28,347 bases of DNA, taken from positions 1 to 28,347 of IMG/VR virus record IMGVR_UViG_3300041407_000052. One strand, written 5' to 3'. Each line of letters begins with the position of its first letter. The stretch's first letter is position 1. The position numbers and the translations under genes were made by a program. Of this stretch, positions 8,433-21,294 are shown in pieces. The stretch comes from a virus. Taxonomy: Duplodnaviria; Heunggongvirae; Uroviricota; Caudoviricetes. Below the pieces are notes generated by a model. It saw only the letters and a program-made list of their open reading frames with translations, did not search any database and had not been told where the DNA came from.

Positions 8433-9053
8433 ATGATGTTCATTTTTGGTAATGTAACAGCACATGGGGTTGTCTATTTGTATCCAGACGTACCACCAAG
8501 TAACCTAGTATGGACAGACCCAAAAGGTCATACAAACTACTGGTGTTCTGTGCAAGGTGATACCTCTGGTTCAAGTAGCAGTCCGCGTACAGAGAGTCGT
8601 CAGACACTTCCTGAATCTGGGGTACCTTACAACTGGCGAGTTGGTGAGTCACTACATGCGATGTTGGGTACGGTAAGAGTTGAATTGGCACCGAGTAGTG
8701 GTAAAGTAATCGTCGGTCAAATCCACGCACACAAAGCACCAAACCCATTTGTGATGGTTACATGGTGGAATGGAGTTGCAAGGATCGACCTGAGACTTAC
8801 ACCAACCAGCTCAGCAAGTAAAGTATTGTCTGTTCCATGTGCACTTGGTGAATCATTTGAATACAGTTTGGTATTGAGTCCAGACGGTATTCTACAGGTT
8901 GCGATCAATGAATCATATTACGTGCTTGACGTAAACCCTCTTTGGGATGAATATCCGTTCTACTTCAAAGCAGGTGCTTACGTGATTGACAATGATGGAC
9001 CTGAAACCGAAGGTGGTTGGGTTGTATACGAAAAGTTTGGTGTGATTAGTTAA
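8433..9053 (+). CDS. Polysaccharide lyase family 7 (alginate lyase), no signal peptide
   Basis: All three PL7 conserved regions are present: SPRTESRQ (R.ELR-like), IVGQIHA (QIH) and FYFKAGAY. Confidence 0.88.
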   Translation: MMFIFGNVTAHGVVYLYPDVPPSNLVWTDPKGHTNYWCSVQGDTSGSSSSPRTESRQTLPESGVPYNWRVGESLHAMLGTVRVELAPSSGKVIVGQIHAHKAPNPFVMVTWWNGVARIDLRLTPTSSASKVLSVPCALGESFEYSLVLSPDGILQVAINESYYVLDVNPLWDEYPFYFKAGAYVIDNDGPETEGGWVVYEKFGVIS

Positions 9054-17255: not shown

Positions 17256-17330
17256 ACCCTGAATTTCATTTTCCCCTATTTTGACTTCCCTGATTTACAC
17301 TTTTCCCTGTAAATCCAGTTCCTGAAATCC
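17256..17330. repeat. Five degenerate pyrimidine-rich units (consensus about TYCCTGAWWT), 15-17 bp period
   Basis: Units start at about 17256, 17272, 17287, 17304 and 17319. Confidence 0.55.
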
Positions 17331-17454
17331 CGTCTTGTTAGTTATTCAACTGTCGGTAAATCCCTATTCGTTTAACGGAAGTAGCTCTAATGGGTTTAAC
17401 GCCCCGGACTTCAGGCAGCTACCGCCCGTCGGTATAATTCTAAAATCCCTAGAG

Positions 17455-17471
17455 TTGGCATAAACCTTGCT
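17455..17471 (+). promoter_or_regulatory. sigma54-like -24/-12 motif TTGGCATAAACCTTGCT
   Basis: GG-N10-GC spacing with TGGCA and TTGC boxes. Confidence 0.5.
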
Positions 17472-17494
17472 AAGTGATTCGGTTGATCACCATA

Positions 17495-17513
17495 TGTGAA
17501 TGATTATCATTCA
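17495..17513. promoter_or_regulatory. Fur-box-like palindrome
   Basis: TGAATGAT-T-ATCATTCA perfect 8-bp arms; 13/19 to GATAATGATAATCATTATC. Confidence 0.5.
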
Positions 17514-17727
17514 ATGTCATTTAACATAATACCTATTACACGCACAGCTGCATCCCCTCCCTTGGTATGCACCGGGAAGGTATTGTCTATCGATGGGTTG
17601 GGTATGAGTGGTTGTCTCTATCTGGCTGCATTGCACAGCCTTACCACAATGTTTCACTATACGCCCATGTGGGCAGAATGTACACCTTTTATTCATTTAT
17701 TTGTGCAGAATGCACGTATTGTTGAAT

Positions 17728-17746
17728 GATAATGATTATTATTTAC
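17728..17746. promoter_or_regulatory. Fur-box-like site
   Basis: GATAATGATTATTATTTAC, 15/19 to the Fur consensus. Confidence 0.55.
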
Positions 17747-18005
17747 CTTGATAAATCAAGGGTATTTTATACTCTATCCCATATAATGGGATGATAGTGA
17801 GTGTGGGATGCTTAGATCATTGTCCCAATGTTCAGCATACCCAAGAATAGTAATATTCAGTGAATAGTCAATATTATGTCGTTATTACGACATGTACTGT
17901 CAATGTTATGGCTTGTAAGCCATGATCTATAAGGCTTTGAGAGAAGCGGTATATGATGTGCTATGCACATGGTAGGGGTGCTGCACTGCTATGCAGTGAG
18001 TGGTA

Positions 18006-18021
18006 CTGTAGGAGGTTACAG
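18006..18021. promoter_or_regulatory. LexA (SOS)-box-like CTGT-N8-ACAG
   Basis: TACTGTAGGAGGTTACAG; the spacer is less AT-rich than ideal. Confidence 0.3.
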
Positions 18022-18355
18022 AGGGTATACTACCGTATACTAAGGAAGAGAACAGGGGTTACTACCCTGTTTCTATATCTGATATGTACGCCTGTTATGT
18101 ATACATAACAATAGGTAATTCTATAACGTTATACGTTATAATAGTATTCTTTAATACATACTCTTTGTTCTTGTGGGGTTTATCCCCACTCTTTCCTGTC
18201 TCTCTAATACCTATTCACCCGTTACTACGGGTGGACATAGGGCATTATAATAAGAAAATGCTGTTTATGTCAATACAGTATGGTTAAAGTACGTTTAAAT
18301 AGGTTGATTCTGCTAACAATCTGTGATAATCGGGTACATCATGCTAACAACTGAT

Positions 18356-18374
18356 GATAATGAGAATAATTATT
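18356..18374. promoter_or_regulatory. Fur-box-like site
   Basis: GATAATGAGAATAATTATT, 16/19 to the Fur consensus. Confidence 0.62.
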
Positions 18375-18383
18375 GCTTGCATG

Positions 18384-18404
18384 AGAAAGCCCCTTTCGGG
18401 GCTT
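18384..18404 (-). terminator. Rho-independent terminator closing the - strand block
   Basis: On the - strand AAGCCCC-GAAA-GGGGCTT followed by TCTC; directly downstream of the last - strand gene. Confidence 0.78.
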
Positions 18405-19087: not shown

Positions 19088-19633
19088 TTAAACCCCAGCT
19101 TTGTTGTAAGTGGTCCAAGCTTCTACAAACTCGGGTGATTTAACAAGATCATCCATTAGTGAGTTGATATTGTCTTGATTGACTAGGATCATGTCAACAC
19201 ACCGTTGGGCGGTTGCTTCTGGTGTACCAGTTGCCAACATTTGCTGTTTAACGAATGCTTTAGCAATGTTTAAAGCATTCTGAAATGCATCAGCACGCGC
19301 TTGGAACTTCGCGTTGCTTGCTGCTTCACGGTCTGCATTGCGTTGGTTGGATTCAACCTGAGCCACTTGTTTAGCTTCGAACTGTTCCGAAGTCAGGCGA
19401 TTGAATGTGATTTCGACCTTACCCGAAGTTGCAAGATGTTTTTCAACCCGGACAACACCTGTTGCATCACAGATGTAAAACAAGGTGTAAGAGTTGCGGT
19501 ATACAGCACCACCAGTGACGAATGTATTTTCTTCTTGACATTGTGCCAGAAGAAACTTTGCCTGCGCTTCGGATTTGAAAAAGCCATTGTTAGACTTGAC
19601 AAGCGAAGCGAAAGAAACGGCAATGTTCGACAT
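19088..19633 (-). CDS. Hypothetical early protein with C-terminal helical region
   Basis: ORF track; GGAG RBS; directly downstream of a promoter. Confidence 0.85.
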   Translation of the reverse strand: MSNIAVSFASLVKSNNGFFKSEAQAKFLLAQCQEENTFVTGGAVYRNSYTLFYICDATGVVRVEKHLATSGKVEITFNRLTSEQFEAKQVAQVESNQRNADREAASNAKFQARADAFQNALNIAKAFVKQQMLATGTPEATAQRCVDMILVNQDNINSLMDDLVKSPEFVEAWTTYNKAGV

Positions 19634-19681
19634 GGTGAATCTCCAGAAACTTAGGAGGCTTTTGCCTCCCTTCTGTTAATC

Positions 19682-19709
19682 ATTTTACAGCTTTTAGAGA
19701 AGGGTGCAA
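19682..19709 (-). promoter_or_regulatory. sigma70-type promoter TTGCAC-N16-TAAAAT
   Basis: Member of the repeated promoter family; AT-rich UP-like element upstream. Confidence 0.78.
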
Positions 19710-19723
19710 CAATTATTTTCAAT

Positions 19724-19856
19724 GCTCTATAAGCTCATATAACGCGTTTTGAGCAACGATAATTTGAGGCTTGATGTTGCTATGTCTTTGGGTTTAAAAC
19801 GTCGTACCAATATGTATGCCAACATTGGAAGACAGTGTGGGAAAATTACGTGCCAA
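19724..19856. repeat. Non-coding repeat, copy 1
   Basis: Shares GCGTTTTGAGC, ATGTCTTT and TTAAAACGTCGTACCAA (17 bp identical) plus two TGCCAA motifs with 21031-21166. Confidence 0.85.
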
Positions 19857-19909
19857 TGTTAAATAGCAGGCTCCTCTGGTGATTGCCTCTGACCCTCACC
19901 AGTAACTGT

Positions 19910-19939
19910 ATTGTACAACAATTTTTAGAACCATGTCTA
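19910..19939 (-). promoter_or_regulatory. Possible sigma70 promoter TAGACA-N18-TACAAT reading into repeat copy 1
   Basis: Contains the family spacer motif TTCTAAA; the spacer is 2 bp longer than in the other copies. Confidence 0.5.
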
Positions 19940-19953
19940 TAATTATTTTAGGC

Positions 19954-19980
19954 AAAGAAAAACCCCGACAAAGCGGGGTT
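19954..19980 (-). terminator. Rho-independent terminator
   Basis: On - AACCCCG-CTTTGT-CGGGGTT followed by TTTCTTT. Confidence 0.88.
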
Positions 19981-19996
19981 ATATGTTCAAACGGGT

Positions 19997-20203
19997 TTAT
20001 CCACCATATTTCTGGTTAAGTAGCTCACCGATATGCAATCGATATTCATCGGGCATTGATTCATAGTCTTGAATGGTGAAACGTGAAGACATGGCAAGCG
20101 CAAGACATTCGGCTTTCTCTGCTCGCTCTTCCATCTTCTTAAGTGCTGCCTTCAACTGGTTAACATAAACCCGTGTTAGTTGGACATTGCTAAGCGCTTT
20201 CAT
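19997..20203 (-). CDS. Hypothetical early protein (MKALSNVQ...)
   Basis: Track 19997..20230; ATG 20203 has an AAGGA RBS (the longer start runs through parS). Confidence 0.72.
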   Translation of the reverse strand: MKALSNVQLTRVYVNQLKAALKKMEERAEKAECLALAMSSRFTIQDYESMPDEYRLHIGELLNQKYGG

Positions 20204-20213
20204 GTTAGTCCTT

Positions 20214-20229
20214 TGTTTCACGTGAAACA
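20214..20229. other. parS: parS site (perfect palindrome)
   Basis: TGTTTCACGTGAAACA, intergenic, between a stop codon and the next RBS. Confidence 0.88.
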
Positions 20230-20232
20230 ACT

Positions 20233-20430
20233 TTAAAAGATTATTTCTTGACGAATGATAATGATGTCAGCTACTTCAATCTGTTCTCTTGACCACAACT
20301 CACCATACCACAACTTAGATGTTGCCTCATCATGTGAATCAGTGTGCAACAAATCTAACATGTTGCATTCAAACTGTTCACGTTCGCCTGTACTCTTGTT
20401 ATAGGCTGTGAAAGTTATTTTGGTAATCAT
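20233..20430 (-). CDS. Hypothetical early protein
   Basis: ORF track. Confidence 0.7.
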   Translation of the reverse strand: MITKITFTAYNKSTGEREQFECNMLDLLHTDSHDEATSKLWYGELWSREQIEVADIIIIRQEIIF

Positions 20431-20452
20431 GTACGTACCCCCAGTACCTCAA

Positions 20453-20665
20453 TTATTGACCTTTGCACATTTTACCAGCATACATGATGTAACTGGCTTT
20501 ACCTTCTGCGCAAGCTTTAACAGCATTTTCATGTTGCTGAGCTTTGAATACAACAGCATTTGCAGCAACTTCTTTTGCACGGTAATGATCACCAACAACA
20601 GGGGCCACTTGCGAGATTGCCATGATCAGACCAAAGAACAGTGCAATACCGGAAAAGAAGTTCAT
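20453..20665 (-). CDS. Small membrane-anchored or exported protein
   Basis: N-terminal hydrophobic helix FFSGIALFFGLIMAI; AAGGA RBS; promoter upstream. Confidence 0.75.
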   Translation of the reverse strand: MNFFSGIALFFGLIMAISQVAPVVGDHYRAKEVAANAVVFKAQQHENAVKACAEGKASYIMYAGKMCKGQ

Positions 20666-20715
20666 GTGCGTATTCCTTTAGTAGTGGGAGGCTGTTTCGC
20701 CTCCCTATGTGTTGT

Positions 20716-20743
20716 ATTCTACAGCTTTTAGAGAAGGTTACAA
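20716..20743 (-). promoter_or_regulatory. sigma70-type promoter TTGTAA-N16-TAGAAT
   Basis: Repeated promoter family. Confidence 0.75.
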
Positions 20744-20746
20744 GCT

Positions 20747-20917
20747 TTATTTGTAGTTGTTCAAAGCCTTTTGCATGGCTTTATAACCATTGGCTTGCTC
20801 TGTGAGGTTGGAGTATGTGACAACTTTAGTAGCGTCAGCGTGCATCACGGAACCGAAAGGACCATAAACAACGAAACCGTTAGTGCCTTTGATTACTTGA
20901 ATTTGATTAGCGTTCAT
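20747..20917 (-). CDS. Hypothetical early protein (56 aa, MNANQIQVIKG...)
   Basis: Translated by hand; GGTGA RBS; has its own promoter. Confidence 0.75.
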   Translation of the reverse strand: MNANQIQVIKGTNGFVVYGPFGSVMHADATKVVTYSNLTEQANGYKAMQKALNNYK

Positions 20918-20967
20918 ACTATCACCTTGAGCTGTTTGAGTGGCTGTCTTGCCTCTCTATGTGTCCA

Positions 20968-20995
20968 ATTCTACAGTGTTTAGAAAACCATGCAA
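20968..20995 (-). promoter_or_regulatory. sigma70-type promoter TTGCAT-N16-TAGAAT
   Basis: Repeated promoter family; AT-rich upstream. Confidence 0.78.
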
Positions 20996-21030
20996 GTATT
21001 ATTTTCAATCTTTTAGAAAAGAATTCATAG

Positions 21031-21166
21031 GCTCTGTAACGCTCTATAATGCGTTTTGAGCGACGTTATAACCTACCCTTCACACTGCCATGTCTTTTGG
21101 ATTAAAACGTCGTACCAAGAAGCGTGCCAAGTCTGCTCTCTATATTGTATGCTATTATCATGCCAA
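21031..21166. repeat. Non-coding repeat, copy 2
   Basis: See copy 1; also contains the inverted repeat CGACGTTATAA...TTAAAACGTCG. Confidence 0.85.
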
Positions 21167-21224
21167 CTAGGAACGTCACCCACTCTCCCTGTTTGTCTCG
21201 TGCTAAATTCCACACCATGACAAT

Positions 21225-21252
21225 ATTCTATCAGTATGTGACTGGAATGCAA
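21225..21252 (-). promoter_or_regulatory. sigma70-type promoter TTGCAT-N16-TAGAAT reading into repeat copy 2
   Basis: -10 at 21225-21230 and -35 at 21247-21252; follows a terminator. Confidence 0.72.
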
Positions 21253-21271
21253 GGAATATTAACACATAGGT

Positions 21272-21294
21272 AAAAGCCCCAATCAAGGGGCTTT
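21272..21294 (-). terminator. Rho-independent terminator (possibly bidirectional)
   Basis: AAAGCCCC-AATCAA-GGGGCTTT, with an A-run and a T-run on the two sides. Confidence 0.85.

Follow-up and report, generated by a model that had tools for sequence, protein, structure and literature searches.

The window analysed here, 28,347 nucleotides of the IMG/VR virus record IMGVR_UViG_3300041407_000052, is the first 28 kb of a 104,392-bp phage genome (G000). The DNA ligase of G000 is 46-54% identical to the ligases of P. putida and P. syringae myophages (KoPa-4, phiPMW, and Otagovirus), and G000 is an uncultured Pseudomonas-type phage with related genomes of approximately 100 kb. From about 18.4 kb on, the window carries small - strand genes of unassigned function. 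Within this block a non-coding element occurs twice, each copy lying between two promoters, and from its sequence the element is best classed as a probable regulatory cassette related to phage sigma54-type promoter elements and to promoter-proximal non-coding elements. Neither the region nor either copy matched GenBank phage DNA in blastn searches, and Pfam and PHROG scans of ten neighbouring proteins gave no DNA- or RNA-binding candidate.

An earlier note on this DNA had described a duplicated stretch of about 130 bp with ordered blocks at near-equal spacing. The blocks were found where it had placed them: GCGTTTTGAGC at 19744 and 21051, ATGTCTTT at 19782 and 21090, and the 17-mer TTAAAACGTCGTACCAA at 19794 and 21102. 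The 17-mer had two matches, against 0.12 expected from shuffles. When copy 1 was compared with the whole 104-kb genome by BLAST, copy 2 was the sole match (E 4.8e-14, 77% identity), and the family profile (nhmmer, four genomes) returned copy 1 at E 2e-43, copy 2 at E 3e-51, and no other match. The two copies are homologous and the duplication is real. Their extent had to be corrected, because the homology continues upstream to the predicted transcription start: the full copies, counted from that start to the last TTAYAGAGC, span approximately 19720-19903 (184 nt) and 21027-21218 (192 nt), both on the - strand. The order of terminator, promoter, element, and promoter on the - strand was correctly described for both copies.

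Upstream of copy 1 lies an intrinsic terminator with a 7-bp stem and a T run (19958-19980), followed by the promoter TAGACA-18-TACAAT (19910-19939), which has 10/12 matches and is of the same class as the promoters of the related genomes G001 and L070. The element begins with a 5'-terminal hairpin, CUGGUGA/UCACCAG (19876-19902), obtained as the minimum free energy (MFE) structure, in which a U-A pair is changed to C-G in G001 and L070. Box II, TTGGCACG-N4-TTTCC (19840-19856), is -24-like and has lost the -12 GC; its TTTCC variant recurs in L112. Block I (19794-19822) consists of TTGGCATA-N4-TTGGTACGACGTTTTAA and includes boxes Ia and Ib and the invariant 17-mer. The 3' domain, AAAGACAT ... CGTTGCTCAAAACGCG (19743-19793), is conserved and lies outside any open frame of the - strand. 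Two tandem TTAYAGAGC repeats with a period of 10-11 (19724-19742) end 14 nt before the -35 of the downstream promoter, TTGCAC-16-TAAAAT (19682-19709), after which come a 5' hairpin (19654-19669) and a 181-aa gene (19088-19633).

The second copy, whose orthologue in G003 is 95% identical, has the same arrangement. Its intrinsic terminator, read from the sequence, lies at 21272-21293, and its promoter TTGCAT-16-TAGAAT at 21225-21252, the place at which G002, L056, and a truncated unit of G001 have TTGACG-17-TAGAAT. Block III, TTTAGCACGAGACAAACA (21190-21207), corresponds to the GAGACAAACA box common to the cultured phages phiPMW, KoPa-4, and PAK_P3/KPP10. Box II, TTGGCATG-ATAA-TAGCA (21150-21166), is of the sigma54 -24/-12 type with GG-N10-GC kept. 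It is followed by block I, TTGGCACG-CTTC-TTGGTACGACGTTTTAA (21102-21130), the 3' domain (21050-21101), and the two tandem TTAYAGAGC repeats (21031-21049). A 21-bp insert (family D2, 21010-21030), which partially duplicates a promoter spacer and is found in subtype B (defined below) except L056, separates these repeats from the downstream promoter TTGCAT-16-TAGAAT (20968-20995), which leads into a 56-aa gene (20747-20917).

Both downstream promoters belong to a repeat family, D1, a promoter and 5'-hairpin unit that punctuates the - strand small genes. D1 units at 19651-19718, 20685-20752, and 20937-21004 read AAATAAT, TTGCA, TTCTCTAAAAGCTGTA, TAGAAT, and then a GC hairpin. They are found at junctions of shuffled small genes and behave like a mobile regulatory cassette. 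The promoter-early stem-loop (PeSL) cassettes of T4-type phages are likewise repeated promoter and hairpin units found where shuffled small early genes adjoin, and the D1 family of the window behaves alike. The element differs from the promoter and hairpin unit itself, being an extra conserved block of about 190 nt between two such promoters.

Homologues were gathered from IMG/VR and JGI metagenomes, first with pattern scans and then with nhmmer. The family comprises nine full copies in eight related genomes and falls into two subtypes. Apart from the two copies of the window, there is one copy in each of G001, G002, G003, L053, L056, L070, and L134. Subtype A consists of copy 1, G001, and L070, and subtype B of copy 2, G003, L053, G002, L056, and L134; only G000 carries both. 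Conservation occurs in blocks, and zero indels were observed among the subtype B copies and within the subtype A trio, at 20-28% divergence. This absence of indels points to a constraint on spacing, not on reading frame. Several partial matches, namely L006, L078 (4643-4723), L076 (122-202), and L079 (340-420), were judged to be due to chance or to pattern selection and were not accepted as members. The last three, which are unrelated viral contigs, have in common an 80-nt stretch with three tandem TnnAGAGCC that loosely resembles the 3' domain; the similarity has E 3e-5, but the search space was small and pattern-selected.

The surroundings of the element are mosaic. The downstream gene is different in every genome, the element is embedded among unrelated small genes, and homology between G000 and G003 stops no more than 15 nt from the start of the next gene. 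When the 107-aa flanking protein was used as bait, G003 was the sole match. In G001, a truncated unit at 75541-75600 (L017 15541-15600) consists of a terminator, TTGACG-17-TAGAAT, block III only, and then the next promoter and gene, which shows that the 5' module can occur apart from block I and the 3' domain. These breakpoints, together with the truncated unit and the partial promoter duplication in subtype B, are what would be expected if the element were a passively carried recombination module with no function beyond its promoters, similar to the promoter-stem-loop cassettes in the hyperplastic regions of T4-type phages. We consider this improbable, since the element is conserved far above the neighbouring genes (between G000 and G002 it is 79% identical, and the neighbouring 107-aa protein just 44%), its blocks are invariant across two old subtypes, and indels are absent.

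Coding potential was examined. Two antiparallel frames are open in all copies. The - strand frame, ending in ...GTTF, is 38 aa long in subtype B and shorter (about 20 aa) in subtype A; the + strand frame has 26 aa, begins MS(F/L)GLKRRT, and has an invariant ATG. In addition, an ATG lies at the predicted transcription start in copy 2, G003, G002, and L056. Together with the lack of indels, these features would suit an element that encodes one or two very small proteins by leaderless or otherwise non-canonical translation. This is very improbable in our judgement. No Shine-Dalgarno sequence was found for either frame, whereas each neighbouring gene has one, and the ATG at the transcription start is not kept throughout: L053a has lost it, and subtype A has TGA in its place. 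Furthermore, the ratio of nonsynonymous to synonymous polymorphism (pN/pS) was approximately 1 in both frames and for all pairs, variable sites were distributed 12/13/14 by codon position with no codon periodicity, and about 75 nt past the - strand stop are conserved as strongly as the frame. The element is non-coding. A type I toxin-antitoxin system was also considered and rejected, as neither frame has a hydrophobic stretch of transmembrane length.

A sigma70-type promoter precedes 9/9 copies, and the start predicted from it falls on the A of AYGGUG, 7-8 nt past the -10. It is TAGACA/TGTACA-18-TAYAAT in subtype A, TTGCRT-16-TAGAAT in copy 2, G003, and L053, and TTGACG-17-TAGAAT, overlapping the terminator, in G002 and L056; in L134, a TATAAT -10 is preceded by TG and there is no clear -35. 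Judged by sequence, the three promoter classes are unrelated to one another and it is transcription that is the conserved feature, so that the element is very probably transcribed, as the earlier note had supposed. A terminator-like site was found inside neither copy, and transcripts must therefore run through the next promoter into the next gene. The proposal that the element is an antiterminator leader is not supported, on the same ground, as it holds no internal terminator for an antiterminator to act on. The nut sites of lambda and the put sites of HK022 are similar to the element in being promoter-proximal cis elements that can be twofold in one phage genome. However, HK022 put needs two conserved stem-loops, none of which was found in the element, and the window has no element-specific arrangement for terminator readthrough. 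The GCTCTRTAA pair is boxA-like solely on the strand that lacks a credible promoter, and a boxA/nut assignment was rejected. A + strand promoter was rejected as well, since the -10 candidates differ (TATAAC, TATAAT, TATAAA, TGTAAT, TACAAT, and TATAAG) and the -35 is not conserved.

The earlier note had further suggested a structured RNA. The complementarities on which it relied, GCTC...GAGC in both copies and CGACG.../...CGTCG, are present in the sequence, but the family comparison does not support them as helices. Among the nine copies, no pair of GCUC/GAGC or of CGACGUUUUAA/UUAUAACGUCG was changed on both sides; the former is broken by GCUG in G001, L070, and L134, and the latter by CGCUG in L070 and L134. 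One-sided changes in the CGACG/CGUYG pairing turn G-C into G-U on the - strand only, which fits a - strand RNA, weakly. The sole compensatory change in the family occurs in the 5'-terminal hairpin of subtype A (CUGGUGA/UCACCAG versus CGGUGA/UCACCG). The two copies folded no better than shuffled sequences (MFE z-scores of -1.04 and -1.05 for the - strand and -0.14 and -0.18 for the + strand), and RNAalifold gave -4.4 kcal/mol for eight copies. No Rfam match reached the gathering score over the window, and at E up to 5 nothing was found on the element in either copy or at the homologous loci. A stably folded RNA is not supported. A sponge titrating CsrA/RsmA (Rsm) was also rejected, because GGA motifs are not enriched: copies 1 and 2 contain 1 and 2, against 2.2 and 4.5 expected, and the modules of the relatives described below show no enrichment either. 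The only Rsm-clan match was rsmX at E 0.16, located elsewhere in phiPMW.

What is conserved is a series of linear blocks at fixed distances. In the RNA sense, AYGGUG is followed by TTTGGCACGAGACAAACA (block III, subtype B only) and by GTTGGCAYG with 9 further nt (box II). After a variable segment of 21-23 nt comes the nearly invariant block I of about 43 nt (TTGGCACG-N4-TTGGTACGACGTTTTAA, then AAAGACAT), and then the 3' domain with CGTYGCTCAAAACGC and the two TTAYAGAGC, which lie 10-11 nt (one helical turn) apart, a short distance upstream of the next promoter. The motif TTGGCAYG is present three or four times per copy in direct orientation, with start-to-start distances of 40, 36, and 12 nt in subtype B and 34 and 12 nt in subtype A. 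These repeats cluster in the element instead of being scattered over the genome, and the lone 17-mer substitution, in L053, converts TTGGTACG to TTGGCACG, the repeat consensus. The 21-bp insert of most subtype B copies, between the TTAYAGAGC pair and the downstream promoter, corresponds to two helical turns. Tandem repeats of the ToxI type or a CRISPR-repeat mimic were rejected, as the inter-box segments are dissimilar to one another; a DnaA box (TTTCCCACA, subtype A only) and an IHF consensus were discarded because they are not conserved.

The consensus of the sigma54 (RpoN) -24/-12 promoter is TGGCAC(G)-N4-TTGCW. In each copy of the window, two of the boxes have, after N4, a 3-of-4 match to TTGC (TAGC, TTTC, or TTGG). 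Box II of copy 2 (TGGCATG-ATAA-TAGCA) keeps GG-N10-GC, whereas box II of copy 1 (TGGCACG-TAAT-TTTCC) and the boxes Ia (TTGG) do not. With its direct repeats, fixed spacing, lack of indels, and sigma54-type boxes, the element appears to fit well the alternative, offered in the earlier note, of a multi-protein DNA site or enhancer.

Related sequences were found in cultured phages. R1, a sequence-only covariance model of the family, detected the 5' third of the element in phiPMW and KoPa-4 with E 2e-6 to 1e-4: phiPMW has three sites, and KoPa-4 has one clear match (E 2e-6) and one marginal match (E 0.6). Scanning with the pattern GAGACAAACA-N20-32-TTGGCAYG added KPP10/PAK_P3 and several IMG/VR contigs. 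The modules lie at 8469-8567 (-) and 18259-18327 (+) of phiPMW (KU862660), at 55967-56028 (-) of vB_PpuM-KoPa-4 (PP496414), and in the gap between gp80 and gp81 of PAK_P3/KPP10. Like the 5' third of the element, they consist of a GAGACAAACA box, about 25 nt, and GTTGGCAYG-N4-T(T/A)GC, and they are located 60-90 nt downstream of a sigma70-type promoter and directly ahead of the next promoter. These units of about 90 nt have one or two canonical TTGCW boxes, often with an inverted CRTGCCAA partner, and differ from the element of the window in lacking block I, the 17-mer, the 3' domain, and the TTAYAGAGC pair. At 436-775 of L109, a phiPMW locus, a degenerate module copy coincides, together with a terminator and a promoter, with the annotated ORFs gp49 and gp50, which are probably not genes.

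Boxes that follow the full TGGCAC(G)-N4-TTGCW consensus are present in phiPMW, KoPa-4, and PAK_P3/KPP10. They read TGGCATG-ACTT-TTGCA in phiPMW, TGGCACG-GAAA-TTGCC and TGGCACG-CGAC-TTGCT in KoPa-4, TGGCACA-GCTA-TTGCA in PAK_P3, and TGGCATG-GAGA-TTGCA in KPP10. In 11/13 lineages of relatives outside the clade, GC follows exactly 10 nt after GG, and the N4 spacer varies. Between PAK_P3 and KPP10, the 80 nt ahead of the box are identical, and four differences fall inside the box, all of them at non-consensus positions. In the literature searched, we found no description of the element or of the shared module; the phiPMW paper reports sigma70 promoters and a weak motif only (PMC5587285), and the PAK_P3 papers contain no discussion of the gp80/gp81 gap.

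A sigma54-type promoter alongside sigma70 promoters has a precedent among Pseudomonas phages. In PMC10914365, which cites Ceyssens et al. 2008, the sigma54-like promoter P015 of phage YuA is supported by a promoter trap and ONT-cappable-seq. The -24/-12 architecture is common to YuA and the element. However, the YuA promoter is experimentally supported and its transcription start site mapped, whereas the boxes of the window are predicted from sequence; moreover, the -12 part deviates in the window, and the box is reiterated within a transcribed non-coding cassette.

On these grounds we tentatively favour, at clearly less than even confidence, a cassette that acts mainly as a protein-binding platform on DNA, with an array of sigma54-type boxes as its core. 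In such a cassette, the terminator would insulate each copy within the early small-gene block, and the dedicated sigma70-type promoter would produce an untranslated, weakly structured transcript of about 190 nt, with the next early promoter directly after it. The founding box would be a sigma54 (RpoN) -24/-12 element inherited from the module of several Pseudomonas myophage genera, i.e., GAGACAAACA, about 25 nt, and GTTGGCAYG-N4-TTGCW. The boxes may bind RpoN holoenzyme or a factor of the same specificity and, when bound, may add a second, condition-dependent input to the transcription of the downstream early genes. By its GG-N10-GC, copy 2 would retain a plausible sigma54 promoter, and copy 1 would have near-consensus boxes only. 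This reading accounts for the bipartite nature of the box with its varying spacer, the helically spaced direct repeats, the fixed distances, and the lack of a fold.

Several observations weigh against the sigma54-type platform. No box of the window fully matches TTGCW, and copy 1 is without the -12 GC at every box. The strict consensus is not general in G000 and is found at two sites, 17456 and 35547, both outside the element. The enhancer-binding ATPase domain PF00158 is absent from the 104-kb genome, with control genomes positive, nor was any upstream activator site identified. The platform also leaves unexplained the blocks in which conservation between the copies is highest (the 17-mer, AAAGACAT, CGTYGCTCAAAACGC, and the TTAYAGAGC pair), none of which is a sigma54 box. 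In PAK_P3, the depth of complementary DNA (cDNA) contigs does not rise downstream of the homologous box, which is weak evidence as it comes from contigs. Finally, the promoter kept in all copies and the compensatory change in the 5' hairpin argue that the transcript itself matters.

This last point leads to the reading that the element is a non-coding RNA (ncRNA) or long leader acting through single-stranded blocks (the 17-mer UUGGUACGACGUUUUAA and AAAGACAU) that would pair with RNA or bind an RNA-binding protein, the sigma54 likeness being inherited or incidental. The promoter, kept in three unrelated classes and always insulated by a terminator, agrees with it, as do the U-A to C-G change in the subtype A hairpin and the - strand-only G-C to G-U changes, and it would account for the long invariant single-stranded blocks. 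In the relatives (phiPMW, KoPa-4, L118, L133, and PAK_P3/KPP10), the leader upstream of GAGACAAACA forms a small hairpin with compensatory changes in 3/6 pairs. A search for RNA runs containing the window itself returned none. Logan contigs of four RNA libraries from a PAK_P3-like infection (two Illumina and two Nanopore cDNA) were also placed on the KPP10 locus. They cover the homologous gap; being contigs, they are uninformative on strand, level, and starts, and their loose ends were used as a weak hint. One Nanopore cDNA contig has a poly-T loose end at L116:802, hinting at a sense-strand RNA 3' end right after the GAGACAAACA hairpin and before the box. Elsewhere on the KPP10 locus, a strand-switch adaptor loose end at L116 1024 (+) corresponds to the transcription start of the gp81-like gene, and a poly-A tail loose end at 598 (+) to a + strand 3' end after the gp80-like gene.

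Candidate ncRNAs derived from 5' untranslated regions (5'UTRs) are common in Pseudomonas phages, including PAK_P3 and phiKZ (PMC10914365). Like the element, they combine a promoter with a conserved untranslated stretch before a gene and are conserved within a group. They differ in their defining feature, a premature terminator from which a short RNA results, whereas the copies of the window have no internal terminator and no predicted stable structure. The PAK_P3 unit has a GC hairpin followed by CUUUUC. Against action as an RNA stand the lack of a conserved fold, of significant folding energy, and of an Rfam match, and the absence of a terminator or defined 3' end in the window copies, which obliges the transcript to enter the next gene. 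Moreover, a scan of 185,579 prokaryote genomes gave no conserved exact complement of the 17-mer, whose 16 exact matches there are scattered and at chance level with no host target, and variable-spacer bipartite boxes and helical-turn repeats are more typical of DNA sites. We regard action mainly as an RNA as doubtful, yet it is nearly as likely as the DNA platform, and the two readings are not mutually exclusive.

The earlier note had also named a replication origin. An origin or other DNA site activated by transcription, like T4 oriF/oriG or the T7 primary origin, in which the transcript opens or primes the DNA and the boxes serve as iterons, would agree with the layout of the element, a promoter with non-coding DNA and direct repeats behind it. 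In PAK_P3, KoPa-4, and phiPMW, the module is part of a gene-free gap in which clear iteron-like direct repeats follow downstream of the sigma54-type box: AAAATCTGTCGAGTACCTT occurs three times in PAK_P3 (L135, KC862299 1095-1215), CTGTCCAGTTC three times in KoPa-4 (L111, about 560-680, -), and repeats of the TTTTCCC type are present in phiPMW (L110, about 440-640, -). These iteron-bearing gaps are candidate origins or regulatory hubs. The window copies are 1.3-2.7 kb from a comparable gap. Nevertheless, an origin within the element itself is quite improbable. The element has no AT-rich unwinding region (39.1% and 44.2% GC for the copies, against 42.4% for the genome), and the iteron-like repeats of the window sit in the separate gap. 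One genome has two copies and each relative one, and the GC-skew extremum near 18.4 kb merely marks the switch in gene orientation.

The comparable gap, a gene-free stretch at 17256-18386 at a convergent junction, contains many short palindromes, a - strand promoter TTGACA-17-TATAAT near 18270, and about six GGGATTT/CAGGGAA iteron-like repeats at approximately 17270-17460. It resembles the gaps that house the homologous module in PAK_P3, KoPa-4, and phiPMW. The strict sigma54 consensus TGGCATAAACCTTGCT at 17456-17471 (+) lies in this gap and is kept in G003. The second one, TGGCATGATGGTTGCT, at G000 35547 beyond the window, is conserved at G003 102510.

A wider version of the sigma54-type platform may be proposed, which we hold to be unlikely: the module common to lytic Pseudomonas myophages (Plaisancevirus, Nankokuvirus, KoPa-4-like phages, and this clade) would recruit the host sigma54 holoenzyme. 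In this clade, it would have been expanded into an array of reiterated -24 boxes whose -12 parts are off-consensus. The boxes could be RpoN promoters that need no activator, or the array could be a sink through which early transcription, or replication close by, is coupled to the RpoN state of the host.

Almost nothing is known about the cis-regulatory DNA and RNA of early host-takeover regions in non-model phages. Here, an element with its own promoter is more conserved than the genes around it and links an uncultured rhizosphere clade to cultured, tractable phages, namely phiPMW, KoPa-4 (P. putida KT2440), and PAK_P3 (P. aeruginosa); because the module is common to these cultured phages, it is directly testable. 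Should the element act as an RNA, it would represent a new family of unstructured phage ncRNAs with an unusually long invariant sequence. If the boxes do bind RpoN, strictly lytic phages would read the sigma54 state of the host, a behaviour so far documented mainly for YuA.

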